Source: Patescibacteria group bacterium (GTDB lineage Bacteria; Patescibacteriota; Minisyncoccia; UBA6257; GWB1-50-10). From it: a stretch of 64,000 nt of DNA. The stretch spans positions 2,836 through 66,835 of the forward strand of contig JAMCYI010000001.1 of the NCBI GenBank assembly GCA_023474215.1. The letters are read 5' to 3'. A program made the position numbers and the translations under genes. The notes below the pieces were generated by a model that was not told the DNA's origin, did no database searches, and was given only the letters and a program-made list of their open reading frames with translations. Below are positions 4,917 through 61,394 of the stretch, piece by piece (the stretch's first letter is position 1; every line of letters starts with the position of its first letter).

Positions 4917-5178
4917 GTGTTCCTAACAAATAAACCCGACCTTTTTCTCTGGCCGGGTTCGACAAACTGCTCTGTGTGAAAACACAAAGCTCCCAGCCAG
5001 TGATGCCTTGCGGCACCCATACAGGTTTCCCCGTATGACCAGTAACGGAGCTCTGACTAGGAGCTTTCTATTCGTTACTGGTTTTTTGAACCCTGCCGCA
5101 GGCTTCCCTACGGGTTAGGTCTCATGTTTAGTTGTATGGAGTCAATATTAACACACTGGACAAGGAGGGCAAGACAAC

Positions 5179-6803: not shown

Positions 6804-8072
6804 TTGGAAATCCTCTCCATCGGCAAAGCCGCCTCCCGCTCAGGAAGCGTCGAGTTCGGCATCAAATCTCCCGACCGGCGGCACCACATGTACCTCGTGG
6901 GCCAGACCGGCACCGGCAAGTCCACCTTCCTCAAGAATGCGGCGGTTCAAGACTTGCGGGCTGGGCGCGGCCTTGCGGTAATCGATCCTCATGGCGCGCT
7001 TGTCGAGGACATCCTGCGGTTCATTCCCAGGCGCCGGACGGGCGAGGTCGCGTATTTCAATCCGACTGACGCCGATCATCCCGTCGGCCTTAATATCCTC
7101 GAGGCGAGGAGCGAGAACGAGCGGAACCTGGTCGCCTCGTCCCTCATCTCGATTTTCAAATATCTCTGGAAGGACTTCTGGGGTCCTCGGCTGGAGCATG
7201 TTTTCCACAATGCAATCCTCGCCCTAATGGACACGCCGGATTCGACGCTCCTCAGCGTGTACCGGATGCTTGCCGACGACGCCTTCCGCGCGAAGGTCGT
7301 CGGGAGGGCGAAGGACCCGGTCGTGAGGTTCTTCTGGGAAGAGGATTTCGAGAAATATCCGGCGCGGTTCAAGAAGGAAGTGACGTCGCCGATCCAGAAC
7401 AAGATCGGGCAGCTCCTCACGAACAGCTGCATTCGGAACATCGTCGGGCAAGCCGAGAGCACGCTCGACCTGCGGTTCCTGATGGACAACCAGAGGATTC
7501 TCTTTGTAAATCTCGCCAAAGGCGTGATCGGCGAGGATAAGGCAAACCTCCTAGGATCGGTGCTCGTGACGAAACTGTACCTCGCGGCGCTCGAGAGGCA
7601 GACAGTGCCGGAGGACAAGCGCCGGGATTTCTACCTTTATATCGACGAATTCCAGAATTTTTCGACGGAAGCGTTTCCGTCGATGTTGTCCGAATCCCGC
7701 AAGTACCGGCTGAACCTGATTCTGGCGCACCAGTATCTCCGCCAGCTCCCGGAGAGCGTGCGCCACGCCGTCTTCGGGAACGTCGGGACGCTCTCCGCCT
7801 TCCGCGTCGGCGGGCTCGACGCAGAGGAGCTGGCCAAGGAATTCCAGCCGGACTTCGAGCGGGACGATCTCACCCATATCGAGAACTACCGCTTCTGCAC
7901 AAGGCTCATGATCGACGGCAAGCGGTCAAAGCCGTTCTCGGCTGAAACGCTCCCGCCTCCCCGCCTGCGGGGCGACGAGGCGGACGCCGAGACGGTCATA
8001 AGGATTTCTCAAGAGCGTTTTGCTTCAAAACGTGAAGACGTGGAACAAGCGGTCGAAAAATGGTTCGCCTGA
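6804..8072 (+). CDS. TrwB/TraD/VirD4-family P-loop ATPase, paralog of 607..1986 (apparent TTG start)
   Basis: GQTGTGKST...VIDPHGAL, YLYIDEFQNF, RKYRLNLILAHQ; roughly 40% identity to first copy by eye. Confidence 0.7.
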   Translation: MEILSIGKAASRSGSVEFGIKSPDRRHHMYLVGQTGTGKSTFLKNAAVQDLRAGRGLAVIDPHGALVEDILRFIPRRRTGEVAYFNPTDADHPVGLNILEARSENERNLVASSLISIFKYLWKDFWGPRLEHVFHNAILALMDTPDSTLLSVYRMLADDAFRAKVVGRAKDPVVRFFWEEDFEKYPARFKKEVTSPIQNKIGQLLTNSCIRNIVGQAESTLDLRFLMDNQRILFVNLAKGVIGEDKANLLGSVLVTKLYLAALERQTVPEDKRRDFYLYIDEFQNFSTEAFPSMLSESRKYRLNLILAHQYLRQLPESVRHAVFGNVGTLSAFRVGGLDAEELAKEFQPDFERDDLTHIENYRFCTRLMIDGKRSKPFSAETLPPPRLRGDEADAETVIRISQERFASKREDVEQAVEKWFA

Positions 8073-8632: not shown

Positions 8633-8660
8633 GACCAGCTCACTGCTGGTCTTGTTTTTT
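8633..8660 (+). terminator. terminator gaccagc-tcact-gctggtc + cTTGTTTTTT (overlaps copy 1 of 35-bp direct repeat)
   Basis: 7-bp stem + T-run. Confidence 0.6.
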
Positions 8661-8673
8661 GAAGATTCGAGCC
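8639..8673 (+). repeat. 35-bp exact direct repeat copy 1 (ctcactgctggtcttgttttttgaagattcgagcc)
   Basis: identical to 10314..10348. Confidence 0.9.
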
Positions 8674-10296: not shown

Positions 10297-10313
10297 GGGC
10301 ACTAATATAAAGG

Positions 10314-10348
10314 CTCACTGCTGGTCTTGTTTTTTGAAGATTCGAGCC
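10314..10348 (+). repeat. 35-bp exact direct repeat copy 2
   Basis: identical to 8639..8673. Confidence 0.9.
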
Positions 10349-11703: not shown

Positions 11704-12311
11704 ATCGGCATTATTCTAGCTCCGCGCCGGGCGAATTCTTTGGATATCCTTTCCAAACCATCTAGGTCAGCTTGCGTTGCAACACTGGCATCCTTGAATA
11801 CATCTGCATGCATAAGGGTAAAGCCATCTATAAAAAGCTTGATTAGTGTGTCGGGAGATATGAACGCAACAGTATGGCCGAGTTTTTTAAATTTCTCATC
11901 CCAGTCCCTTATAACGTCCGTGCTTTCGGAACCGTTAGGCATATTTATGGAAACTCCATTTTCTGGCTCTGGCAAACCGAATGCGTGGACGATTGCACAA
12001 CGGAATTTATACAAAAACTTTTCGTTGACCAGTTTAAGATAAGGGTGGGTTTTATAGGTCGCATTGCTTTCGATAACGCAATATTTTTTCATCCACTCTT
12101 CCAAGAGAGGACGGCCGCCCAGACTGCGGTTATAGAAAGCGTTGTATAAGTTACTGGCGATTTCCAAAAACGAAAATGCTACTAACGCCCTCACCCTAAC
12201 GAACTGCTGATCTTTTCTGAGAACTCCAATTGCGCCGGATATCTCCTCAACCATTTCCCCTAGTCTATCATCGACATCTTTTTTCACCTCCTCGTATCTC
12301 TTGATATCCAT
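11700..12311 (-). CDS. hypothetical protein (203 aa) convergent with and overlapping the HEPN-like gene by 4 bp
   Basis: ORF track; no recognised motif. Confidence 0.45.
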   Translation of the reverse strand: MDIKRYEEVKKDVDDRLGEMVEEISGAIGVLRKDQQFVRVRALVAFSFLEIASNLYNAFYNRSLGGRPLLEEWMKKYCVIESNATYKTHPYLKLVNEKFLYKFRCAIVHAFGLPEPENGVSINMPNGSESTDVIRDWDEKFKKLGHTVAFISPDTLIKLFIDGFTLMHADVFKDASVATQADLDGLERISKEFARRGARIMPI

Positions 12312-24052: not shown

Positions 24053-24079
24053 AATTCCAAAATCCAAATTCCAAATCAA
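24053..24079. repeat. AAWTCCA heptamer tandem repeat (about 3.5 units) directly after gyrB stop, followed by hairpin ccaaatcaa/ttgatttgg
   Basis: direct reading. Confidence 0.7.
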
Positions 24080-34153: not shown

Positions 34154-34768
34154 ATGTTCGCACTCATATCGAATGTGGTCATCGAAACGATAAAATACCT
34201 CGGCTACCCGGGAATTTTCATCCTCATGACGCTCGAAAGCGTAAATATCCCCATCCCCTCGGAAGTCGTCATGCCGTTCTCGGGATTCCTCGCCCTTCAA
34301 GGGAATTTGGATTTTTGGCTTGTCGCGCTTATGGGTACGCTCGGAAATCTCGCCGGCTCTTTTTTGAATTATTTCCTCGCCGAGTGGATCCTCGGGATCA
34401 GGGAGAAATATAAGGTACTCCGCATCATCCTTTCGGAACGCCATCTCAAGAAGACCGACGAATGGTTCAAGAAATACGGATCGTACTCCATCTTCTTCGG
34501 GAGGGTTATTCCCGTGGTTCGAACGTTCATATCGCTGCCTGCCGGCATCGGAAAGATGAACATCGGAAAATTCACTTATCTGACCTTCTTCGGATCGTTC
34601 TTATGGGCGTGTTTTCTGACATACGTTGGATTCTTCCTCGGCAACAACTGGACCCTCATCCAGGATTACTTCAGGCAGATGGACTACATTATCCTCGCCG
34701 CCATCGCCGCCGCTTTGCTCTATTGGCTCCTCCGCCGCCGGAAGAGAAAGAAGGATTCCTTACATTAA
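34154..34768 (+). CDS. dedA: DedA-family membrane protein
   Basis: YPGIFILMTLESVNIPIPSEVVMPFSGFL. Confidence 0.75.
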   Translation: MFALISNVVIETIKYLGYPGIFILMTLESVNIPIPSEVVMPFSGFLALQGNLDFWLVALMGTLGNLAGSFLNYFLAEWILGIREKYKVLRIILSERHLKKTDEWFKKYGSYSIFFGRVIPVVRTFISLPAGIGKMNIGKFTYLTFFGSFLWACFLTYVGFFLGNNWTLIQDYFRQMDYIILAAIAAALLYWLLRRRKRKKDSLH

Positions 34769-34873
34769 TATGGGAGCGATGTCGCCTCCGAAGAAGCTTT
34801 TTCCTTGAGATATATAAATCCCGAGCGACGAGGAAGGAATGAACGAAATAGCGCCTGTATGAATCCCGAGTTG

Positions 34874-34905
34874 CCTCACTTTTTCACCATGGTGAAAAAG
34901 TGAGG
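34874..34905. repeat. 32-bp perfect palindrome cctcactttttcaccatggtgaaaaagtgagg
   Basis: self-reverse-complementary across CCATGG centre; no T-run on either side. Confidence 0.9.
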
Positions 34906-35007
34906 CATGAGGTTGAGTTCGATATTTCGTGGCTTAATTCCGACGAGGAGCGAGGAGGATTTATTCGAAAGGAAAACTTGCCGATGAGGAGACAACATCG
35001 CGACCCC

Positions 35008-40879: not shown

Positions 40880-41643
40880 AAAATACACTGACGCCATCAA
40901 AAAACGCAGAACGAATGGCAATTCAGTATCTTCAACACGAATTCAGGAAAATCTTGAACGGCATTCGGGACCCGAAGACTTGGAGATTAATAGACAGAGA
41001 AATCGCCAATTTCCCCAAAACACAGGGTGGGGCATCATTCTGGAATCTCGTTGCGGCTATATCGGAAGATTGGAAACTGAAATCGGTCTTCCGAATATTG
41101 TCGGACACGCGGGTCACTTGGACACTGCAAGAAATTTCCCTGAAGAGAATTGTCCTCACCGGGATGTCGCCGGAAATCGACCGCTACACAATAGCGCGAT
41201 GCGACGGGAGTCCGAAGCAGTTTCTTAAACTGTGGGAAGGTAATCGGAAAGCGCGGAGCGACATATTGAAAACAGGATTCTCAAAACACGGGGAGCGAGA
41301 TTACTATCCCATCTTCCTTTGGGAGGGACCGGATGGCCTCCACGTTTTTGATGGCATGCGGAGGATGCTCCTTGCGATCATCAATCGCAAAAAGACGATC
41401 AGGGCATGGGTCGGGAAACCTTCGAGGAAGAAGGGAGGACCACTCATTGCAAACGGTTTTGCTTATGCTCTGTCAGCGGTTTACCGGCATGCCGGCAAGA
41501 GAAATAATGCCCTTGATAATGCCATCATCGAAATCGTAAAAACGATAAAAAGAGATTATCGGAACGGCAAAGAGGTGACAGAAAAAAGAATCGCTGGCTG
41601 GTCGCGCGATGAAAAGATAAAAAAGATATTCGGTCAAAAATGA
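40876..41643 (+). CDS. hypothetical protein (255 aa)
   Basis: ORF, 4-bp overlap with mltG. Confidence 0.45.
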   Translation: MKNTLTPSKNAERMAIQYLQHEFRKILNGIRDPKTWRLIDREIANFPKTQGGASFWNLVAAISEDWKLKSVFRILSDTRVTWTLQEISLKRIVLTGMSPEIDRYTIARCDGSPKQFLKLWEGNRKARSDILKTGFSKHGERDYYPIFLWEGPDGLHVFDGMRRMLLAIINRKKTIRAWVGKPSRKKGGPLIANGFAYALSAVYRHAGKRNNALDNAIIEIVKTIKRDYRNGKEVTEKRIAGWSRDEKIKKIFGQK

Positions 41644-42439: not shown

Positions 42440-43038
42440 TGGCTTACCGGGGGAAAAGAATTTTAGATCTCGTGATCGCACTGCCGGCTTCACTTTTTAC
42501 CGTGTTCCTCACGCCTTTCGTGGGGCTTGCCGTGGCCCTCGAAGACGGCTTTCCGATATTCGTACGTCTTGAACGGATAAGCGACGGTAAAGTGATCCGC
42601 GTGTGGAAATTCCGTTCAATGATAAAGGGAGCACAAACGATGAAAAAAGAACTGGGGAGCTTGAACGAGCGGAAAGACGGCCCGCTTTTCAAGATCAAAA
42701 ACGATCCGCGCCTCACGAAGACCGGCAAGATACTCCGCAAATTCAGACTGGACGAGTTCCCGCAAGCATGGAATATCCTTTCGGGCGATATCTCTCTCGT
42801 CGGCCCGCGGCCGCACGAGCCCGGGGAAATCGGCCAATATCCTCCGGAATTCAAACGCCTGTCGCTCGCACAATCAGGCCTCACCGGCCTTTCTCAAGTT
42901 TCAGGCGCTTCAAAACTGCCGTTCAAAGAAGAAGTGGCGCTCGATGTTTACTACGTCGACCACGAATCATTCCTCATGGACATGAAGATCCTTTGGAAGA
43001 CCATCGCCATTTTTTTCTCCGACCCGACCGGAGTGTGA
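42439..43038 (+). CDS. bacterial sugar transferase (undecaprenyl-phosphate hexose-1-phosphate transferase, PglC/WbaP C-domain type)
   Basis: KFRSM, DGPLFK...DPR, DEFPQ...SLVGPRP motifs. Confidence 0.85.
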   Translation: MAYRGKRILDLVIALPASLFTVFLTPFVGLAVALEDGFPIFVRLERISDGKVIRVWKFRSMIKGAQTMKKELGSLNERKDGPLFKIKNDPRLTKTGKILRKFRLDEFPQAWNILSGDISLVGPRPHEPGEIGQYPPEFKRLSLAQSGLTGLSQVSGASKLPFKEEVALDVYYVDHESFLMDMKILWKTIAIFFSDPTGV

Positions 43039-43042
43039 GCGA

Positions 43043-43180
43043 GTGAGGGTATTTCTCTTCAAAACACGCTATCAAATTCCCCAGCGTGGAATTTGCGCTC
43101 GCTCTCGGCCTCGCTCTGCCCTTCGGGCAACCATGCCCGCGAGGCCTCCGAGACGGTTTCGAAAGAGAAATATCCTCACC
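43043..43180. repeat. palindrome-flanked element family A (TIR GTGAGGGTATTTCTCTT / AAGAGAAATATCCTCAC), 5 nt after stop
   Basis: 16/17 TIR; internal aaacacgct...cgctcgctctcgg...gagacggttt shared with 49488..49629. Confidence 0.6.
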
Positions 43181-43262
43181 CTTTGGTAAAGTTTTTATAT
43201 TCAAAAGAGGCACAGCTAAAAAGAATGGAAAATCATATAAAACCAGGGTAGAATGAGACCTA

Positions 43263-44360
43263 ATGAAGGTTGCCATTCTGCATGATTATTTGAACCAATT
43301 CGGCGGCGCGGAGCGCGTCGTGAAAGTCCTTCTCGAAATATTCCCGCAAGCGGACCTCTACACGCTTCTGTACGACAAACAAAAAACCAGCGGCCTCTTC
43401 GACCGGAACATAAAAAAGACCAGCTTCATGGACATCCCGTTCATTCGGAACCATCATCGAATGTTCATACCCTTCATGCCGTTCGCCGCAAAGTACCTTA
43501 CGTCGCCCGAAAAATACGATCTCGTCATTTCGTCGACGGCCGGTTACGGCAAGGGGATCAACGTCCGGGGGAAATATCACATAAGCTACTGCCACACGCC
43601 CTTACGGTATGCATGGGAAATCGACTACTTGAAAAACCTCTCCGCTTCGCCGCGGCCTCTTTCGAATGCCATCGCATACCCCATCGCACGAAGGCTCCGC
43701 GAATGGGATAAGCGCTCCGCCAGCCGAGTGAATCTTTTTATCGCCAACTCAACCTTCATCGCCGATAAAATAAAATCATACTACGGCAGAGATGCGGTGG
43801 TCGTGAATCCGCCGGTAAACTTGAAGATTTTTTTCCCAGAGCCGACCGCCGCAAAACGCGATTATTATCTCATGGCCGGGCGACTGTTGTACTACAAGGG
43901 CTTCGACCTCGGTATTGCGGCCTTTAATCAGCTCCAAAAGCCCCTGAAGATCGTGGGGCAGGGTCCCGAACTCGAGAAACTCATGAAGATGGCGAGATCT
44001 CAAAAAATAGAATTCATCACGAAAGCCGACGATCGCGAACTCCGAAAGCTCTATGCGAACGCGAAAGCGCTCTTATTCCCTCAAATCGAAGATTTCGGAC
44101 TCGTCGCCGCCGAAGCTCAAGCGTGCGGCACGCCGGTCATCGCTTACGAACGGGGCGGCATTCGGGATATTGTCATAAACAAAAAGACCGGCTTGTTCTT
44201 CAATGAGCAAACGCCGGCAGCCATCGTCGAGGCCGTAAAGGATTTCGAGAATATGTCCTTCTCGAGAAGTTCCATCGCGAAAGCCGCAGAACGTTTCTCC
44301 AAAGAAAATTTTATACGGGAATTTTTGGAGATTCTTCGGTCATACGGCCTGATGATATGA
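43263..44360 (+). CDS. glycosyltransferase family 4
   Basis: EDFGLVAAEAQACGTPVIAYERGGIRDIV. Confidence 0.85.
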   Translation: MKVAILHDYLNQFGGAERVVKVLLEIFPQADLYTLLYDKQKTSGLFDRNIKKTSFMDIPFIRNHHRMFIPFMPFAAKYLTSPEKYDLVISSTAGYGKGINVRGKYHISYCHTPLRYAWEIDYLKNLSASPRPLSNAIAYPIARRLREWDKRSASRVNLFIANSTFIADKIKSYYGRDAVVVNPPVNLKIFFPEPTAAKRDYYLMAGRLLYYKGFDLGIAAFNQLQKPLKIVGQGPELEKLMKMARSQKIEFITKADDRELRKLYANAKALLFPQIEDFGLVAAEAQACGTPVIAYERGGIRDIVINKKTGLFFNEQTPAAIVEAVKDFENMSFSRSSIAKAAERFSKENFIREFLEILRSYGLMI

Positions 44361-45481
44361 AGATCTTCATTGACGCACGGTCGCTCTATGCCCATATCAT
44401 TTCCGGCGTGCCGGAGTATACGCGTCTTGCCATAACTGCGATGGCAAGCCGGTTTCCAAGCGAAGAATTTTTATTCTTCGCCAATCGCTCGAAAATGAAG
44501 TCGAAAAAAAATCCGCTGGAAAACGAGGTAAAAGGGGAATGGCTGAACCTCGGAATATCCAACAAGATTTGGAGCGCTACAAATCGTCTCTTCGGCTTGC
44601 CGAAGATAGACAAGCTGGTTCGCGCCGACGTTTACTGGAGTCCTCACATCGACATCCTTTCTTTTAAGAATCCTGCGCGTCACGTCCTGACGATCCACGA
44701 CCTTTCCTTCGTCTTTTATCCGGAATTCTTCACATGGCAAAAAAACTTCTGGCACTGGCGGCAAAACTACGAACGGCAAATCAAGGAAGCGGGGCGCGTG
44801 ATCGCCGTTTCGGAGTTCACGCGGCGGACGATCATCGACCGGTTCCGCTTGGATGAAAGAAAAGTCGTCCGCATTTATCCGGGACTCGACGATTTCTATC
44901 GCGGCAAAACGGAGGGGAAGGAAACGGGTGAAAGGAAATATCCTTTTCTCCTCCACGTCGGAACTTTGGAGCCGCGGAAAAACGCAATCGGAGCCATCCG
45001 GGCTTTCAACCTCGTAAAACAAAACGGACGCTTCAAGGACCTCAAATTCATTCTTGTGGGCGCCCCGGGTTGGCTGTATCAAAAGATCCTCGTGGAAATC
45101 GATCGATCGCCGGCAAAAAACGACATTGTCGTTTGGGGGAAGGCGACCAGAGAAGACCTCCGGAGCCTCTACCGGCAAGCCGCGGCCTTTGTCTATCCTT
45201 CTTTTTTCGAAGGGTTTGCATTCCCATGCCTCGAAGCTCAAGCATCCGGAACCCCGGTCATAGCCTCCAATCGAGGCCCCCTCGAGGAAGTGTTAGGCAC
45301 AAGCGCCCTCCTCGTCGATCCTTGGAAAATCGGCGATCTCGCATTGGCAATAGAAAGCGTTTTGTTGGACAATAAAGTAAAAGAACATTTGATCGAGGCT
45401 GGCCGGAAGAATGCGGATCGATTCCAATGGCAAACGACAGCCGAGGAGCTTATGAAAACCTTCCGAGAAATACATGGCTAA
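44357..45481 (+). CDS. glycosyltransferase family 4
   Basis: EGFAFPCLEAQASGTPVIASNRGPLEEVLG. Confidence 0.85.
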   Translation: MKIFIDARSLYAHIISGVPEYTRLAITAMASRFPSEEFLFFANRSKMKSKKNPLENEVKGEWLNLGISNKIWSATNRLFGLPKIDKLVRADVYWSPHIDILSFKNPARHVLTIHDLSFVFYPEFFTWQKNFWHWRQNYERQIKEAGRVIAVSEFTRRTIIDRFRLDERKVVRIYPGLDDFYRGKTEGKETGERKYPFLLHVGTLEPRKNAIGAIRAFNLVKQNGRFKDLKFILVGAPGWLYQKILVEIDRSPAKNDIVVWGKATREDLRSLYRQAAAFVYPSFFEGFAFPCLEAQASGTPVIASNRGPLEEVLGTSALLVDPWKIGDLALAIESVLLDNKVKEHLIEAGRKNADRFQWQTTAEELMKTFREIHG

Positions 45482-47579
45482 AAGGAACGTCCCCAAAAAG
45501 AATATCGATCCCATTTTAGTTGACGTCAAGAAACCGAACTTCAACTACGACCATCTCCGAAAATTCGAGATCGTCAATCTCACGAAGATCCCCAAGCAGG
45601 AAAAGAGGAACGCGGTTTCGATCGCAAAAAGGGTCCTCCTTGCCGTTTTCATTGCGGGGATCGTGGGATTCGTTTCGTTCATCGGCATCACCTTCGCGAA
45701 TATCCGGCAAATGAAGGCGACCGTCGAGGAAAGTGGGGCGCAAATCATGCAGAATTTCAGTTCATCGGTCGGAGCCCTCAAAAACTTCGAGCCGTCGACC
45801 GCCGCAACGTATCTCGAGAACAACTCGAAATCGCTCGCTAACATCGACAACCTCGTGACAAAGGGGTTCGGCGAAAACATCGTGCAAACGGTGAGCAATT
45901 TCGTCCCCATCATCAAACAAGCGTTCGGTCTTGTAGGACAAGTGTCCAATTTGAACGGGGATCTTTTGGAACTTACCCAAACGATCGCCGATCTCCAAAA
46001 GAACGGATTTAAAGACTTCAAAAGCAACGGCCCCGCACTTATTGCAGACCTCGAAAAACTCCACACCCTCGTCCAAAATCTCAACAGCGAGGCGGGGGGC
46101 ATCAAGAATACCACTTCGTATCTCAAGAGCATGTCGAGCTTTTTCGGAGGATTGGACCAAAATGTCGGAAACGAATATTTGAAGTACAGTTCCGAGCTCT
46201 ACGGCTGGGATAACGTGCTGGTTCAACTGACCAACTTCCTGAACTCCCCGACACCGAAGCATATTGCCGTTCTCTTCCAAAATCCGGCAGAAATACGGCC
46301 CGGCGGGGGATTCATCGGAAGCTACGCGGATGTGAGCGTCCAAAACGGCCAAATGCAGGGCATGGACGTGCGAGACATTTACGATCCGGACGGCCAGCTT
46401 GCCATTAAGGTGATACCGCCCGAAGAATTGCAGGCGACGACTCCCAATTGGGGCGCCCGCGATTCCAACTGGTTCTTCGACTTTCCAACGTCGGCAAAAA
46501 CGACACTGAACTTCTTGAACGCTTCAAAAATGTACTCCGACAAGGGGATCCGCTTCGATGCGGCGATCGCCATCAACATCAACGTCGTAAACTCCCTCCT
46601 TGATGTTACGGGACCTATCACATCGCCCGGATATCCAACCGTCGATTCGTCGAATTTTCTCGAAGAAGTTCAGCGCGAGACGGAGCAGAGCGCGAACCAG
46701 CGAGCCGGGCAGCCGAAAAAAATCCTGCAAGTTCTGGCGCCGATCCTCATGGAAAAGTTGGATGCGCTCGACAGCGATCAATCGAAAGCGCTCATCGATG
46801 CCCTCAAAAATGACCTTCAAAAGAAGGATATCATGTTTTACTCCACCGATCCCACAATCGAGAATTTCCTCGACTCGAACGACGTGAATGGCGGCGTTTA
46901 CCAGCTCCCCGACGGCTTTTGGGGAAACTATCTCGCAGTCGTGAACGCCAACGTTGCCGGCGGCAAGAGCGATGCGTTCGTAAAGGAGGCGGTGAACGCT
47001 CATGTCGACATTGACACGAGCGGGAACACCTTTACGGATGTAACCGTCACGAGACAGCATACCGGCAACACTCAAACGGATCCATGGTGGCGCGCCACGA
47101 ACAATGATTTTCTACAGATCTTCACGGAACCGAACTCGAGCCTCGTCGACGTGACCGGCGAAAACACGCGAAAGAAATACTCAACGCTCGACTATGCCAA
47201 TTCCGACTACGCCGTGAATCCGGATCTCGCTGCCATTCAAGCGAACGAGGTGTTCCTTACCAATTTCAACACGTGGCAGCGATCCGAATTCGGCAAGAAC
47301 GTTTTCGGAACCTGGCTTTTCACAAAGGCGGGGACGACCTCCACGCTCACCATGCGTTACCAAACGAGCTATAACGGCATCAAGGTTTTGATGCCCGGCC
47401 AAAAATACACGTTCGTCTTCGAGCGGCAGTCGGGTGTCCAAAACTCACTCGATTTGACCATCAACGCTCCCTTCAAATATTATTGGGTAGAATCCAATTC
47501 GCCGGTCTATACGTATCACACAGACGACCCGGATAAGCGGATCATCATAACCCTCACGCTTGGGTATCAAAGTCAATAA
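45474..47579 (+). CDS. large membrane-anchored extracellular protein (701 aa), possibly DUF4012-like, in glycan cluster
   Basis: N-terminal TM; IRPGGGFIGSYADVSV motif; gene context. Confidence 0.45.
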   Translation: MAKRNVPKKNIDPILVDVKKPNFNYDHLRKFEIVNLTKIPKQEKRNAVSIAKRVLLAVFIAGIVGFVSFIGITFANIRQMKATVEESGAQIMQNFSSSVGALKNFEPSTAATYLENNSKSLANIDNLVTKGFGENIVQTVSNFVPIIKQAFGLVGQVSNLNGDLLELTQTIADLQKNGFKDFKSNGPALIADLEKLHTLVQNLNSEAGGIKNTTSYLKSMSSFFGGLDQNVGNEYLKYSSELYGWDNVLVQLTNFLNSPTPKHIAVLFQNPAEIRPGGGFIGSYADVSVQNGQMQGMDVRDIYDPDGQLAIKVIPPEELQATTPNWGARDSNWFFDFPTSAKTTLNFLNASKMYSDKGIRFDAAIAININVVNSLLDVTGPITSPGYPTVDSSNFLEEVQRETEQSANQRAGQPKKILQVLAPILMEKLDALDSDQSKALIDALKNDLQKKDIMFYSTDPTIENFLDSNDVNGGVYQLPDGFWGNYLAVVNANVAGGKSDAFVKEAVNAHVDIDTSGNTFTDVTVTRQHTGNTQTDPWWRATNNDFLQIFTEPNSSLVDVTGENTRKKYSTLDYANSDYAVNPDLAAIQANEVFLTNFNTWQRSEFGKNVFGTWLFTKAGTTSTLTMRYQTSYNGIKVLMPGQKYTFVFERQSGVQNSLDLTINAPFKYYWVESNSPVYTYHTDDPDKRIIITLTLGYQSQ

Positions 47580-49486
47580 TGGAAACCATTCGAAATTTTT
47601 GCATTATCGCTCATATCGATCACGGTAAGAGCACGCTTGCCGACCGCCTTCTCGAGATCACGGGGACGGTCGAATCGCGGCGCATGCATGCCCAGTATTT
47701 GGATCAACTCGATCTCGAGCAAGAGCGGGGGATCACCATCAAAATGGCCCCCGTCCGGATGGCATATCATCCGGAATTAGGAATTTCGAATTTCGAATTT
47801 CGAAACAAAGAAAACAATCCTGCTGCCGCTCAAAATTCAAAATTAAAAATTAAAAATTCAGGTTCAGAATATATTCTGAACCTCATAGATACTCCCGGCC
47901 ACTCCGATTTCGCGTACGAAGTATCGCGATCGTTGAACGCCGTCGAGGGCGGCATTCTTCTTGTCGACGCGACACAGGGGATCCAAGCCCAGACACTTTC
48001 CAATTTCAGAGCGGCAAAAGCGGCCGGCCTCACGCTCATCGGGGCGATCAATAAGATCGATCTTTTCAAGGATCGGAACGACCACGCACTTGCCGAACTC
48101 CGAAAGGAAGTGGCGGAACTCCTGGGGATAGGGCCGGAGGACGTTTTCATGGTTTCAGGGAAGACCGGCGAAGGTGTCGAGCAACTTTTGTCGGCTATTA
48201 TCGAAAAGGTTCCGCCGCCAAAAGTCGCAAATTCAAATTTCAAATTTCAAATTTCAAATTTGGGCCGCGCTCTTATCTTCGATTCGTTCTACGACGATCA
48301 TAAAGGCATCGTCGCTTCCGTTCGCGTTTTCGAGGGAGCTTTCGAACGCGAAGACCCGATCGTTCTTGCAGCAACGGGCACCGAAGTAAAGATCAAAGAG
48401 GTCGGTTACTTCTCGCCTCAGCCGAAAGCAGCTCAATCGATCAAGAAAGGCGAGATCGGCTACATTGCGACCGGCATCAAAGACACGAGCAAAGTAAAGA
48501 TCGGCGACACCGTTCTCATGATCCCCAAACCTTACACCATCGACCCTCAAACCCTCGCTCTTCCCGGTTACCGGGAGCCGAACCCCGTGGTTTTCGTTTC
48601 TTTTTATCCCGAAGATGCCGACGACTATGAAAATCTGAAGAGGGGACTTGAAAAACTCCATTTGAACGACTCATCGCTCCATATCGAGCCGGACCAGAAT
48701 GAGATTCTGGGGAGGGGATTCAAAGTCGGATTCCTCGGCAAGCTTCACTTTGAAATAACCGCGGAGCGCCTCGAGCGCGAGTTCGATGCGCGGGTCGTAA
48801 GCACGTTCCCATCCGTCGTCTACAAGATCGTCAATAAAGGAAAGGAAGAATTCATTACAAAACCGGAAGATCTGCCGAACGAATACGACGAGATTTGGGA
48901 ACCGCTCGTCCGCATCAATATCCTCGTTCCTTCGAATTACCTTGCAAGCGTCCTCTCGCTCCAGAATAAATTCCGGATCGAGGATCTGACGACGAAGACG
49001 GTCGTGAACTCCATCGATATCGAAGCGATCATGCCTCTTTCCGAACTCGTGAGCGATTTCGACGACCAACTGAAATCGGCAACGTCCGGCTATGCTTCGT
49101 TCAGCTACGAATTTTTGGACTATCGCAAGGCCGACGTCGTGAAAGTGGATAATTTCGTCGCGGGCGAGATCATTCCGGGCCTTTCGCGGTTCTTCCCTCG
49201 GGAAAGCGTGGAGCGTGAAGCGCGGAAGATGGTGGAAAAACTAAAAATTACCCTTCCGAAACAGCAGTTCCCGCAGGCGCTCCAAGCGAAGATCTCGGGG
49301 AAGGTCATCGCACGCGAGGATATTCCGGCCATGCGGAAGGAACTCGGCAATTTCGGCAAAAACGGCGGAGACCGGACGCGAAAAATGAAACTCTGGCAAA
49401 AGCAGAAAAGGGGGAAGGAAAAACTGAAAGCAATGGGAAAGGTGCGGATCGCGCCGGAGGTATTCAAGGAATTAATTAAGAAATAA
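47579..49486 (+). CDS. lepA: elongation factor 4 (LepA) with two in-frame repeat-derived insertions
   Basis: NFCIIAHIDHGKSTL, DTPGH; C-terminal LepA domain; insertions at about 47772-47884 and 48227-48262. Confidence 0.95.
   Translation: METIRNFCIIAHIDHGKSTLADRLLEITGTVESRRMHAQYLDQLDLEQERGITIKMAPVRMAYHPELGISNFEFRNKENNPAAAQNSKLKIKNSGSEYILNLIDTPGHSDFAYEVSRSLNAVEGGILLVDATQGIQAQTLSNFRAAKAAGLTLIGAINKIDLFKDRNDHALAELRKEVAELLGIGPEDVFMVSGKTGEGVEQLLSAIIEKVPPPKVANSNFKFQISNLGRALIFDSFYDDHKGIVASVRVFEGAFEREDPIVLAATGTEVKIKEVGYFSPQPKAAQSIKKGEIGYIATGIKDTSKVKIGDTVLMIPKPYTIDPQTLALPGYREPNPVVFVSFYPEDADDYENLKRGLEKLHLNDSSLHIEPDQNEILGRGFKVGFLGKLHFEITAERLEREFDARVVSTFPSVVYKIVNKGKEEFITKPEDLPNEYDEIWEPLVRINILVPSNYLASVLSLQNKFRIEDLTTKTVVNSIDIEAIMPLSELVSDFDDQLKSATSGYASFSYEFLDYRKADVVKVDNFVAGEIIPGLSRFFPRESVEREARKMVEKLKITLPKQQFPQALQAKISGKVIAREDIPAMRKELGNFGKNGGDRTRKMKLWQKQKRGKEKLKAMGKVRIAPEVFKELIKK
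47780..47884. repeat. (GAATTTC)3 - spacer - (AAAATTM)4 - 24-bp perfect palindrome ggttcagaatatattctgaacc, in-frame inside lepA
   Basis: direct reading; adds ~27 aa between G2 and G3 regions relative to E. coli LepA. Confidence 0.85.
48227..48262. repeat. (AAATTTC)n heptamer tandem repeat in-frame inside lepA
   Basis: aaattcaaatttcaaatttcaaatttcaaattt. Confidence 0.85.
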
Positions 49487-49487
49487 C

Positions 49488-49629
49488 GGCAACTCTCGAT
49501 CTCTTCCCAAACACGCTGTGCCAAACCCCGGCGAGGTTTGGCCGCTCGCTCTCGGGTTCGCTCTCTCGCTTCGCTCGAACCGTGCCCGTTCACCCTGCGA
49601 GACGGTTTTGTCAGAAATCGAGAGTTGCC
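49488..49629. repeat. palindrome-flanked element family A/B (13-bp perfect TIR GGCAACTCTCGAT), 1 nt after lepA stop
   Basis: perfect TIR; shared internal blocks with 43043..43180 and compensatory internal hairpins. Confidence 0.65.
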
Positions 49630-49677
49630 TAAATTTTGGGGTGGGTGTTTTTGACTCAAGGAAGGGGTGGTGTAAAA

Positions 49678-49988
49678 TGGAGGTAATGAAGTACTGGAAG
49701 GTGATCGTCTTTGTGGTGATCGCGGGAATCGTTGGGTGGGGGCTCTTGAGCCTCTACCAATCACGGAACGCGGCGGACAAGCAGGCAGCCGCACTGAAGG
49801 CCCAATACGACAAGCTCCAAGAGCAGAACCAAAACCTTTCCTCCGAAGTCCAGTATTTTCAAAACCCGGCGAATTTGGTAAAACAACTGAAGGCGCAAAC
49901 GAACTACAAAAATCCCGGGGAAGGGCTTATAATCGTGGTACCGGGATCGACCACGACGACAAGCACGGCAACCGGGACGCAGCAATAG
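49678..49988 (+). CDS. small TM + coiled-coil protein (FtsB/DivIC-like septum-formation-initiator guess)
   Basis: TM VIVFVVIAGIVGWGLLSL followed by Q/K-rich helix; T/S-rich tail. Confidence 0.4.
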
Positions 49989-53994: not shown

Positions 53995-54030
53995 CCGACT
54001 CGCAAGGACGAGCGTCACAATTTACAAAAA

Positions 54031-54107
54031 GCGAGCCAAACACCCTCGCGAAGGCTAAGACTTGGGCGTCGCCCCGGAGACAGCCTGAGCGAGGGTGTTT
54101 GGCGAGC
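54031..54107. repeat. palindrome-enclosed element C1: 15-bp perfect arms GCCAAACACCCTCGC around 44-bp core
   Basis: core gcgaaggctaagacttgggcgtcgccccggagacagcctgagcg identical (inverted) to 56131..56175. Confidence 0.8.
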
Positions 54108-54149
54108 TCAGTTGCCTCAAGGAAAATAAAACTTGTATCATATTAATGT

Positions 54150-56111
<1,962 letters not shown>

Positions 56112-56118
56112 GAGCTCA

Positions 56119-56186
56119 CCGGACATCTCCCGCTCAGGCTGTCTCCGGGGCGACGCCCAAGTCTTAGCCTTCGCAGGAGATGTCCG
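56119..56186. repeat. palindrome-enclosed element C2: arms CCGGACATCTCC/GGAGATGTCCG around same 44-bp core in inverted orientation
   Basis: direct comparison with 54031..54107. Confidence 0.8.
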
Positions 56187-56214
56187 ATTCGCTGTGACTT
56201 GTTATAATTGATAT

Positions 56215-60023: not shown

Positions 60024-60028
60024 CGCCC

Positions 60029-60166
60029 GCGAGAATTCACTTCTCGGAACCGGGCGTTCTTTCGCTCCGGCGGCGAAAGCCGCCCTGCGTTCTCGGCGGA
60101 AAATCCGCCCCACGGGCGGAACCGAGCTTTTTCGCCTCCGAGAGCTTCCTCGAAGTGAATTCTCGC
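60029..60166. repeat. element D with 15-bp perfect TIR GCGAGAATTCACTTC, 5 nt after patatin stop
   Basis: perfect TIR; internal hairpins (ctttcgc...gcgaaag) and repeated cggaaccg. Confidence 0.7.
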
Positions 60167-60206
60167 AGGCTTGATTTTAATTGGGAAAAAGGAAAAATTA
60201 TAAACA

Positions 60207-61394
60207 ATGAATCTTTATTCGAAACTTCCGGAAACTCCGGGCGTCTACATCATGAAAGATGCGGCGGGGAAAATCCTCTATATCGGCAAGGCCGTCAATG
60301 TGCGGCGGCGGGTTTCGAGTTATTTCACGCGACCGCATGATGCGCGGATCGAAGGGCTCGTCCGGGAGATCAAAACGATCGATTTCAAGAAGACCGATAC
60401 GGGAATTGAAGCACTGATCCTTGAATCCGAGCTTATTAAAAAACATCAACCTCCCTTCAACATCAAGGAAAAGGACGACAAGAGCTTCTTATACGTCGAA
60501 ATGACGGGAGAAAGGTTCCCACGCATATTTTTAGCGAGAGGGAAGGACAAACCGAACGGCAAACGGTACGGTCCTTTTACATCGGCCTCAAGCATTCGCG
60601 AGGCGCTCCGGATCATAAGAAAAATTTTCCCCTACGCGACGCACCCCGAGCCGAAAAAACCGCAGGCGAGGGCCTGTTTCGACTACCAAATCGGTCTCTG
60701 CCCGGGAACGTGCATCGGTGCGATCTCAAGGAAGGACTATTTGAAAAACATCGAGAACATCGAACTCTTCTTCGGAGGCAAAAAGGAACGGATCATAAAA
60801 AACCTCGAGCGCGAGATGAAAACGGCAAGCAAGGCATTGAACTTCGAGCGGGCAGGAGAATTGAAGCGCCAGCTTTTTGCCCTCCAGCACATCCAAGACG
60901 TAGCAGTCATCTCTGATGATAAAATCCAAAATCCAAATGACAAATTCAAAAAAACGACGCGAATCGAAGGGTACGATATCTCAAATATCAGTGGAGCTTC
61001 TGCTGTTGGATCGATGGTCGTTTTCACGAACAACGAACCGGACAAAAAAGAGTATCGAAAATTCAAAATTAAAACGGTTTTTCAGCCGAACGATTTCGGC
61101 ATGCTTCAGGAGGTCCTGGAACGGCGCCTCAAAAATAACTGGCCGTTGCCCGACCTTTTCCTTATCGACGGCGGCAGGGGACAGGTGAGCGCCGTCCGCG
61201 GGATCCTTGGCAAAGCAGGGATCAAAATTCCGGTCATCGGCATCGTGAAGGGCCCGGAACGAAAGCGAAACGACATCATCGGAAAAATCCCGTCATTCAC
61301 CGATCTTCAGATCCTCATAAAAGTACGAGACGAAGCTCATCGCTTCGCCATTACGTACCATAAAAAGGTGAGAAGCCGCGAATTTATGAATTGA
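60207..61394 (+). CDS. uvrC: excinuclease ABC subunit C, short form (GIY-YIG + UVR + endonuclease; no C-terminal HhH)
   Basis: GVYIMKDAAGKILYIGKAVNVRRR GIY-YIG; UVR motif ERAGELKRQLFALQ. Confidence 0.8.
   Translation: MNLYSKLPETPGVYIMKDAAGKILYIGKAVNVRRRVSSYFTRPHDARIEGLVREIKTIDFKKTDTGIEALILESELIKKHQPPFNIKEKDDKSFLYVEMTGERFPRIFLARGKDKPNGKRYGPFTSASSIREALRIIRKIFPYATHPEPKKPQARACFDYQIGLCPGTCIGAISRKDYLKNIENIELFFGGKKERIIKNLEREMKTASKALNFERAGELKRQLFALQHIQDVAVISDDKIQNPNDKFKKTTRIEGYDISNISGASAVGSMVVFTNNEPDKKEYRKFKIKTVFQPNDFGMLQEVLERRLKNNWPLPDLFLIDGGRGQVSAVRGILGKAGIKIPVIGIVKGPERKRNDIIGKIPSFTDLQILIKVRDEAHRFAITYHKKVRSREFMN
60921..60955. repeat. heptamer-periodic A-rich repeat (AAAATCC AAAATCC AAATGAC AAATTCA) in-frame in uvrC
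   Basis: direct reading. Confidence 0.7.

Follow-up and report, generated by a model that had tools for sequence, protein, structure and literature searches.

The window analysed here is a stretch of 64,000 nucleotides from a Patescibacteria group bacterium (GenBank assembly GCA_023474215.1, contig JAMCYI010000001.1, positions 2,836 to 66,835 of the forward strand). Two palindromic elements within it, hereafter A (43043-43179) and B (49488-49629), lie directly behind protein-coding genes. A starts 5 nt past the TGA (43036-43038) of a sugar transferase gene (PF02397), and one base separates B from the TAA (49484-49486) of lepA. A preliminary description of the sequence had placed both elements in this way and found their covariation consistent with a family of structured RNAs or miniature inverted-repeat transposable elements (MITEs). 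A and B are confirmed here as homologous copies of one family, with at least 50 copies in 24 Patescibacteria assemblies and in metagenome contigs. The unit is a core of ~105 nt bordered at both ends by ~11 nt of semi-conserved inner arm; a longer, locus-specific inverted repeat encloses it to give an element of ~140 bases. We see about an even chance that the family is a structured intergenic repeat resembling repetitive extragenic palindromes (REP), enterobacterial repetitive intergenic consensus sequences (ERIC) or MITEs, maintained at the DNA level and appearing as a hairpin at the 3' end of mRNA. The parts of A and B, and two related sequences in the window, are as follows.

43043-43059, + strand: 5' arm of A, GTGAGGGTATTTCTCTT; the outer part is locus-specific and the inner ATTTCTCTT matches the semi-conserved, pyrimidine-rich inner arm of the family
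43058-43163, + strand: core of A (covariance model R1, 109.6 bits, E 3.5e-23), with closing helix AAAAC/GTTT, P2 hairpin (43073-43095, loop CCAGCGT), internal loop AACCAUGCCCG, UCUC/GAGA plus P3 GGCC/GGCC, and P4 hairpin (43118-43128)
43163-43179, + strand: 3' arm of A, AAGAGAAATATCCTCAC
43180-43225, + strand: T-rich spacer from A to the promoter of the next gene, exchanged along with the element between strains
49488-49504, + strand: 5' arm of B, GGCAACTCTCGATCTCT
49505-49612, + strand: core of B (R1, 108 bits, E 8.3e-23), architecture as in A, with P2 GCCAAACC/GGTTTGGC and P3 GGGT/ACCC
49613-49629, + strand: 3' arm of B, AGAAATCGAGAGTTGCC
49630-49650, + strand: variable T-rich spacer 3' of B, 5' of a promoter-like TTGACT-16-TAAAAT (49651-49678)
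54111-54136, + strand: relic A-family 3' arm, GTTGCCTCAAGGAAAATAAAACTTGT, which fits the inner-arm consensus GTTTTCTYARNRAAAT and lies 3' of an unrelated element, D1
60025-60170, + strand: element C, a diverged relative in the same superfamily, with 25-bp arms and the core helix order of A and B

Two Homologous Elements

The arms of A (43043-43059 and 43163-43179) are complementary at 16 of 17 positions, the sole non-complementary position being a G·T, and those of B (49488-49500 and 49617-49629) at all 13, exactly as first described. With two mismatches allowed, pairing of the B arms reaches ~17-19 bp. These arms had been termed terminal inverted repeats; they do pair, but they are not conserved between copies and are locus-specific arms, not terminal repeats of the transposon type. 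Three blocks said to be shared, AAACACGCT, CGCTCGCTCTCGG and GAGACGGTTT, are all found in both elements. The 13-mer CGCTCGCTCTCGG has exact matches within the window only at A and B, which also have TCGCTCT and AACCRTGCCCG in common. The first internal hairpins differ in sequence yet remain paired, with CAAATTCC/GGAATTTG in A and GCCAAACC/GGTTTGGC in B, again as had been noticed. Compared with shuffled sequence, the + strand folds with z = -7.1 (A) and -4.6 (B), and both strands of each element fold far better than the shuffles.

Element C begins 1 nt past the TAG of a patatin-like gene. Its R1 match spans 60044-60151 with 33 bits (E 4e-8 on the 401 bases searched), and its folding z is -7.1.

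Architecture and Covariation

Read 5' to 3', the element comprises an outer arm of ~10 bp (locus-specific); an inner arm and small internal loop, together semi-conserved (ATTTYNYTCG); the closing helix AAAAC/GTTTT; ACGCUAU; the P2 hairpin of 8-9 bp with loop CCNGCGW; C-GCUCGC; UCUC, which pairs with GAGA; P3, in which GGNN pairs with NNCC; UCGCUCU; the P4 hairpin, which varies in length; AACCAUGCCCGCUCGG; the return strands; the 3' inner arm, CTYARNRAAAT; and the outer arm. The near-perfect inverted repeat that encloses the core measures 15-25 bp. The core itself folds into a three-way junction whose junction strands vary little and whose helices vary freely in sequence and are always paired.

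This fold is borne out by covariation in the larger alignment, as the preliminary description had anticipated. For the named structure, 93.7% of helix cells are paired, compared with 79.2% after shuffling and 31-49% in slid-partner controls, and cells changed on both sides number 186 against 49 in shuffles. Double changes occur in 20 of 37 pairs, with strong covariation in the closing helix as well as in P2, P3 and P4. The P2 loop and the internal loop are linked by a candidate tertiary pair, formed by G28 and the C94 of AUG[C]CCG; columns 28 and 94 are G:C in 37 copies and C:G in four, with no exceptions, and the copy at locus L154 is likewise C:G. At the base of the core, AAAC/GTTT is invariant in all copies retrieved by pattern, GTT being part of the retrieval pattern and AAAC not. 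The first 41 copies were fetched through the two 'invariant' blocks, GCTCGCTCTCGG and GAGACGGTT, so that invariance there is partly by construction. Both the covarying helices and changes in P4 length by numbers of bases not divisible by three exclude coding sequence as an explanation. The covariation is proof that a single strand folds or that a cruciform forms; which strand folds, and whether as RNA or DNA, is not specified by it.

The helices are almost wholly Watson-Crick and can therefore be formed by either strand. Core helix cells comprise 1293 Watson-Crick pairs, 11 G·U, 20 A·C and 69 others, and arm cells 745 Watson-Crick, 9 G·T, 24 A·C and 8 others, with G·U below 1% of helix cells. 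Pooled over the 41 aligned copies in + orientation, transition mismatches are A·C in 42 cases and G·T in 18. They are spread over different copies and positions, and A·C/G·T is 26/16 in copies that are sense relative to their genes, 8/1 in antisense copies and 8/1 in the others. An excess of A·C is the opposite of the wobble tolerance expected for a + strand RNA: either the complementary strand folds or a mutational asymmetry acts. The earlier proposal of a structured RNA, taken as + strand RNA, thus gains no positive support from the mismatches.

Range of the Family

An exact-pattern scan (GCTCGCTCTCGG, a gap of 25-55 nt, GAGACGGTT) of one genome per species returned 59 loci. Clear copies account for 43 of these and lie in 24 Patescibacteria assemblies, several of which hold more than one; the remaining 16 are chance matches, mostly in high-GC DNA of unrelated phyla. 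Jorgensen-, Wolfe-, Colwell- and Azambacteria, Paceibacterota and Minisyncoccia are represented, and a few of the copy-bearing metagenome-assembled genomes (MAGs) carry the labels Saccharibacteria or Saganbacteria. A phage-borne element was considered and rejected, as the exact pattern has no match in viral contigs.

A covariance model, R1, of the kind proposed in the preliminary description was built from 41 copies and scores A at 109.6 and B at 108 bits (E ~1e-23). It recovers copies without the exact pattern, giving up to four copies in 8 kb of WY2.bin70 (L004), and diverged relatives at 25-41 bits that include element C. Copies found by the model only, such as that at L060, depart from the retrieval blocks by one or two bases. 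R1 matches occur in just nine of 80 lepA-centred loci (1.06 Mb, all from relatives of the window lepA; ten matches at E <= 1), and the family is therefore sporadic. Copy number per genome is estimated at tens at most. Within the assemblies scanned, the family was found only in tiny-genome Patescibacteria. The multi-copy family first suspected from two copies is thus real.

Against Rfam release 15 at gathering thresholds, a search of the whole window left A, B and C unmatched. When A was scanned permissively, the best result (E 2.6) was a spurious miRNA hairpin. A literature search found no paper describing these repeats, and the family is apparently undescribed so far. Elsewhere in the window, a full-length LOOT RNA (RF03000; 88.6 bits, E 1.8e-15) lies at 5002-5121 on the - strand.

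Three variants of the A family were also seen. The copy at L059 (4413-4571) has extra hairpins inside the P2 loop, that at L094 (10921-11070), which follows the lepA of a distant relative, has its P4 region lengthened by a 63-nt insertion, and L017 (3118-3387) holds two adjacent copies in opposite orientation.

Gene Context

Promoter-like sites of the downstream genes lie outside the elements, at 43226-43254 for A and 49651-49678 for B; the elements occupy a dispensable gap between the stop codon and the promoter of the next gene. Stop-codon adjacency, noted at the outset for A and B, is a real tendency of the family: in 18 of 42 copies examined the 5' arm lies no more than 12 nt past the stop of a co-oriented upstream open reading frame (ORF) or overlaps the ORF end. 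An orientation bias, which the preliminary description had suggested checking, is also present. Among the 27 copies in co-directional gene contexts, 19 are sense and 8 (~30%) antisense, and the antisense copies match the sense copies in R1 score.

Neither A nor B shows the G+C-rich stem, 3-8 nt loop and U-tract of an intrinsic terminator, which was rejected as an identity for them. For a - strand promoter in the spacers, no consistent -35/-10 pair was seen by eye and scans report none.

Cores and Arms Evolve Separately

Across copies, cores that are 96-97% identical sit within arms of 30-40% identity. The core of B is 97% identical to that at L023 (2546-2653) while their arms are unrelated (30-35%), and two copies in one MAG (L002 and L038) likewise pair near-identical cores with dissimilar arms. 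The converse is found after lepA at L154, where the arms are homologous to those of B, with three compensated double transitions and no intermediates, and the core, of another subfamily, differs in P2, P3 and P4 and has its tertiary pair in the C:G form. P2 and P4 types are found in most combinations. Cores and arms thus evolve independently, and the P2 and P4 modules are reshuffled. Over 42 copies, information content drops from the core to the ~11 nt of inner arm and reaches zero in the outer ~10 bp. We infer from this gradient, together with the mosaicism, an exchange between copies that is seeded in the conserved core and leaves the arms to drift yet stay paired.

Turnover Between Strains

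Presence, absence and replacement of elements are seen directly between strains. Where the flanks are 92-99% identical, strains may carry another element, another core in homologous arms, or a flipped core. At site A, strains with an identical upstream protein have an unrelated element, E, the swapped segment running from just past the stop codon to AATGGAAAATCAT. The more distant L060 (81-85% nucleotide identity) retains an A-family copy there, with a core 87% identical, diverged yet perfect arms and an unalignable spacer. The element that follows lepA in close strains is B itself, a different A-subfamily core or a member of the C family, C-type copies standing in for B at L153, L155 and L156. 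At L060 the same site is reduced to 34 nt (11825-11858, orthologous to window 49487-49676), TAG-CCCAAACGTTTTGAGAGGTGTAAAAT. More widely, the lepA 3' spacer in 40 relatives is either 15-40 nt long with little beyond a -10 box, or holds one of many unrelated hairpin elements.

A third site lies upstream of uvrB, where the window has D1 followed by the relic A-family 3' arm. WY2.bin70 (98% identical) has an intact A-family copy at this position, with a 3' arm that equals the relic sequence; L159 has a D core flipped inside arms homologous to those of D1, and L060 has no element. The stop-to-promoter spacers are the parts of the genome that vary most between strains and are filled by several nested hairpin families, among which the A/B family has the widest distribution and the most elaborate structure.

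Several explanations of these sites were tried and set aside. That the arms are copied from the target flank at insertion was suggested by the 3' arm of the WY2.bin70 copy, which stands coreless in the window; this was rejected since the sequence fits the inner-arm consensus and is a relic. Insertion into pre-existing long palindromes is unsupported, as the empty L060 sites at B and D1 are armless, but may still occur, since plain perfect palindromes exist, for example at 34872-34907. A specific link to lepA was likewise rejected: the L024 copy follows an ORF other than lepA, and many unrelated elements follow lepA in the 40 relatives.

The other spacer families deserve a brief description. 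Element E is a hairpin of ~190 nt with arms AGAAGAACATATATCCC/GGGATACATGTTCTTCT, present in L141-L149 and L153-L156 at the site orthologous to 43039-43225. Family D is a sister family with two copies in the window, D1 (54030-54108) and D2 (56106-56200), which flank uvrB in opposite orientations; their 44-nt core (GCGAAGGCT…CCTGAGCG) is 100% identical and their arms are unrelated. D2 is missing from the 98%-identical WY2.bin70, and L153 has a D copy at a third site. Between a VTT-domain gene and secA, a composite of nested palindromes occupies 262 nt (34738-35000) and includes a perfect 36-nt palindrome (34872-34907); L153 and L155 have in its place a 104-nt segment with a D-family element. The site of element C is occupied in L060 (20390-20500) by AAAT/CAAAT-rich tandem motifs (AATTCCAAAATCCAAAT…), and short motifs of this kind recur in window spacers at 24053-24076, 48222-48259 and 60922-60945. 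Just after lepA in L072, L090 and L095 lies another hairpin family with conserved arms ATCCCGTTAGAG/CTCTAACGGGAT, apparently placed on the start codon of the gene that follows (ATGAATCCCGTTAGAG…CTCTAACGGGATGAAG).

Strain differences of other kinds were also observed. The window lepA has an in-frame low-complexity insertion (47767-47870, …HPELGISNFEFRNKENNPAAAQNSKLKIKNSGSE…) and encodes 635 aa, where the lepA of sister strains and of L060 encodes 607-609 aa. Two extra genes at 40884-41638 (255 and 42 aa, no Pfam match) are shared with L157 and missing in L153-L156. A perfect 36-nt direct repeat, GCTCACTGCTGGTCTTGTTTTTTGAAGATTCGAGCC, at 8638-8673 and 10313-10348 surrounds 1.6 kb with two ORFs that have no Pfam match, and this segment could be a duplication or an integrated segment.

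How Might the Elements Persist?

The movement and function of the family can only be inferred from these patterns. Under the reading to which an even chance was given above, a REP/ERIC/MITE-like repeat kept at the DNA level, core sequence would be exchanged among copies through gene conversion or template switching that starts in the conserved blocks, and the cores would therefore stay alike while the arms drift. Arms and inner helices may be kept complementary by DNA-level correction of quasi-palindromes, by selection for the hairpin or cruciform, or by both. Recombination from arm to arm would invert the core and so produce both orientations; a core flipped inside homologous arms has been seen in the sister family D (L159). 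New sites would be colonised rarely, through a trans-acting enzyme that reads the folded core or through illegitimate recombination. When transcribed, from either strand, the element would fold so that the upstream message ends in a hairpin of -58 to -72 kcal/mol. Such a hairpin might act as a barrier, terminator or insulator, and it is proposed that the host tolerates the element in the 3' space because it does so.

Several observations sit uneasily with this proposal. The over-representation of sense orientation (19:8) and of stop abutment (18/42) is not predicted by purely DNA-level selfish behaviour. No canonical U-tract terminator is present on the + strand at A or B, the DNA 3' of the arm being merely mildly T-rich. 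Conserved terminal repeats are lacking, and no target-site duplication was consistently found (arm-end repeats of 5-7 nt occur in 6 of 41 copies, with ~1.6 expected from mismatched flanks), and therefore no transposition mechanism is demonstrated; classical transposition was rejected on the same two grounds. No transposase, integrase or reverse transcriptase was found in the 64-kb window or in the annotated flanks of the copies. Low-variation junction strands and a covarying tertiary pair across distant lineages are the signature of a functional RNA, with the caveat that copies were first fetched by an exact pattern on the junction blocks. Lastly, the empty site at L060, CCCAAAC|GTTTTG, is the closing helix of B with neither core nor arms. 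This junction is too exact for chance, and it is accounted for neither by a simple insertion nor by a simple deletion.

A trans-acting enzyme encoded in the window was sought and rejected as a candidate, as Pfam searches of 37 window ORFs and precomputed annotations gave housekeeping genes and two TrwB-like ATPases, with no Y1 transposase domain among the window proteins. The two ATPases are paralogous TrwB/VirD4-like coupling proteins (PF10412) encoded 5 kb apart, at 607-1986 and 6804-8072.

The main rival to a DNA-level repeat is a functional structured RNA, which we hold to be somewhat unlikely. It would be read through from the upstream gene and freed by RNase III-type cleavage of the arms, in the manner of rRNA processing stalks; the core could be, for example, a protein-binding scaffold or a catalytic RNA, and the arms would need only to pair, hence their free sequence. 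The three-way junction with its low-variation strands, the covarying helices and the covarying contact of loop and internal loop all suit such an RNA, as does the conservation of the core (87%) between the window and L060 amid an unalignable spacer. Sense bias and the position of the 5' arm near a stop or overlapping an ORF end speak for it as well. With no promoter inside or just upstream, co-transcription would be the sole plausible source, and with no Rfam match the RNA would be a new class. The helices, however, point the other way: G·U is almost absent, and mismatches that can wobble only on the opposite strand prevail in all gene contexts (A·C 42, G·T 18). The antisense copies in co-directional contexts are equally intact, and close strains dispense with a given copy, having an unrelated element or nothing instead. 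The family is moreover absent from most Patescibacteria sampled, and the genes beside it are mutually unrelated.

Could the core instead be a site that acts as DNA? A folded single strand or extruded cruciform might serve for recombination or protein binding, with a dedicated enzyme that cuts at AAAC|…|GTTT and moves or exchanges cores; possible analogues are integron attC sites, the ends of IS200/IS605, the targets of REP-associated tyrosine transposases (RAYTs) and the gyrase or nucleoid-protein sites of bacterial interspersed mosaic elements (BIMEs). Such a site is quite unlikely in our view, even though it would best explain the AAAC|GTTT boundaries. AAAC and GTTT are invariant at the core base (in copies retrieved with GTT in the pattern), the L060 empty site joins exactly CCCAAAC to GTTTTG, and the window relic starts exactly at GTT. 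Watson-Crick-only helices can fold on either strand, cores are swapped within retained arms, and the position after stop codons recalls attC sites and REPs. Set against this, neither the window nor the annotated flanks showed an integrase, a Y1/HUH transposase or a RAYT-like gene, and the genes between copies (lepA, uvrB, glycosyltransferases and similar, syntenic in relatives at 81-99% identity) are housekeeping genes, not cassettes. The attC consensus of R''/R' boxes is lacking, AAAC/GTTT lies within the arms and not at the ends, and a single precise empty junction has been found.

That A and B are independently evolved ordinary terminators or chance palindromes without meaningful kinship is scarcely credible: location between stop and next promoter, T-rich sequence behind them and plain long spacer palindromes elsewhere in the genome (34872-34907) would fit, but the family alignment, with ~100 nt of shared non-palindromic core (E ~1e-23) in many assemblies, refutes this as a sufficient explanation, and no canonical stem-plus-U-tract terminator was detected.

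The genomes of Patescibacteria are among the most compact in bacteria, and little is recorded on their non-coding DNA. It is unlikely, though it would be the most novel outcome, that the core is either a new kind of single-strand module, folded into a three-way junction that the contact of loop and internal loop locks, which a dedicated Patescibacteria enzyme recognises and cuts at AAAC|…|GTTT so as to move or exchange cores among palindromic arms, or a new class of RNA excised from 3' untranslated regions by way of the arms. With such an enzyme, the family would be a hairpin-resident mobile element without terminal repeats or target duplications; an enzyme recognition module or functional RNA would in either case point towards a novel mechanism of mobile DNA or of RNA in this major uncultured clade. 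If the elements are merely selfish DNA, they would still provide a marker for strain typing, a cause of broken assemblies and false ORFs in MAGs, and a natural experiment in how perfect a long palindrome remains over time.

Comparison With Known Repeat Classes

Integron attC sites are imperfect palindromes of 57-141 bp that lie right after the ORF stop, are recognised as folded single strands and have AAC…GTT at the base of the stem. The A/B family resembles them (e.g., the Vibrio cholerae repeats) as a stop-adjacent imperfect palindrome with AAAC/GTTT and with sequence that is paired but otherwise free. Unlike attC, the consensus CGAAAAC…GTTTTCT misses the RYYYAAC/GTTRRRY boxes, AAAC/GTTT is internal to arms of 15-25 bp, the flanks are syntenic housekeeping genes, and neither intI nor a cassette array was found in the window or annotated flanks. 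An identity as attC sites was rejected for want of the R''/R' boxes and the cassette array.

MITEs are defined by conserved terminal inverted repeats and target-site duplications. Like the Correia/NEMIS, RUP and BOX elements, the A/B family is small, non-coding, non-autonomous, multi-copy and intergenic, would form hairpins in transcripts and is polymorphic in presence and absence. It differs in having no conserved terminal inverted repeats, and the 64-kb window and annotated flanks yielded no parent insertion sequence. The MITE reading of the preliminary description therefore fails in its classical sense, for the outer arms differ between copies even where the cores are 96-97% identical.

ERIC sequences, or intergenic repeat units (IRUs), of Enterobacteriaceae and Vibrio are imperfect palindromes of ~127 bp that are transcribed, intergenic, present in both orientations and conserved across genera. 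The sites they occupy differ between relatives, variants with internal insertions exist, and we know of no established mechanism for their spread. The A/B family is similar in size, non-coding, a single long imperfect hairpin at gene ends in both orientations, and it too has internal-insertion variants (L059, L094) and keeps its sequence across genera while relatives differ in occupied sites. There is no sequence similarity, the host clade is another, and in place of a simple hairpin the core forms a three-way junction that includes a tertiary pair; the ends of ERIC are part of the conserved unit, whereas the outer arms here are locus-specific.

REPs are extragenic palindromes of 20-40 nt after stop codons, with a conserved GTAG head and hundreds of copies. 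REPs and BIMEs have been proposed as mRNA 3' stabilisers, terminators and protein-binding sites and are substrates of single-strand (Y1) enzymes. In contrast to REPs, BIMEs and REPINs with their RAYTs, the A/B unit is ~130 nt long with a branched core; its consensus lacks a GT[AG]G head, and the window and annotated flanks revealed no RAYT gene. It shares with REP/BIME the place directly after stop codons and the mosaic combination of modules. By analogy, REP/BIME, ERIC and MITE-type elements appear to be its closest functional counterparts.

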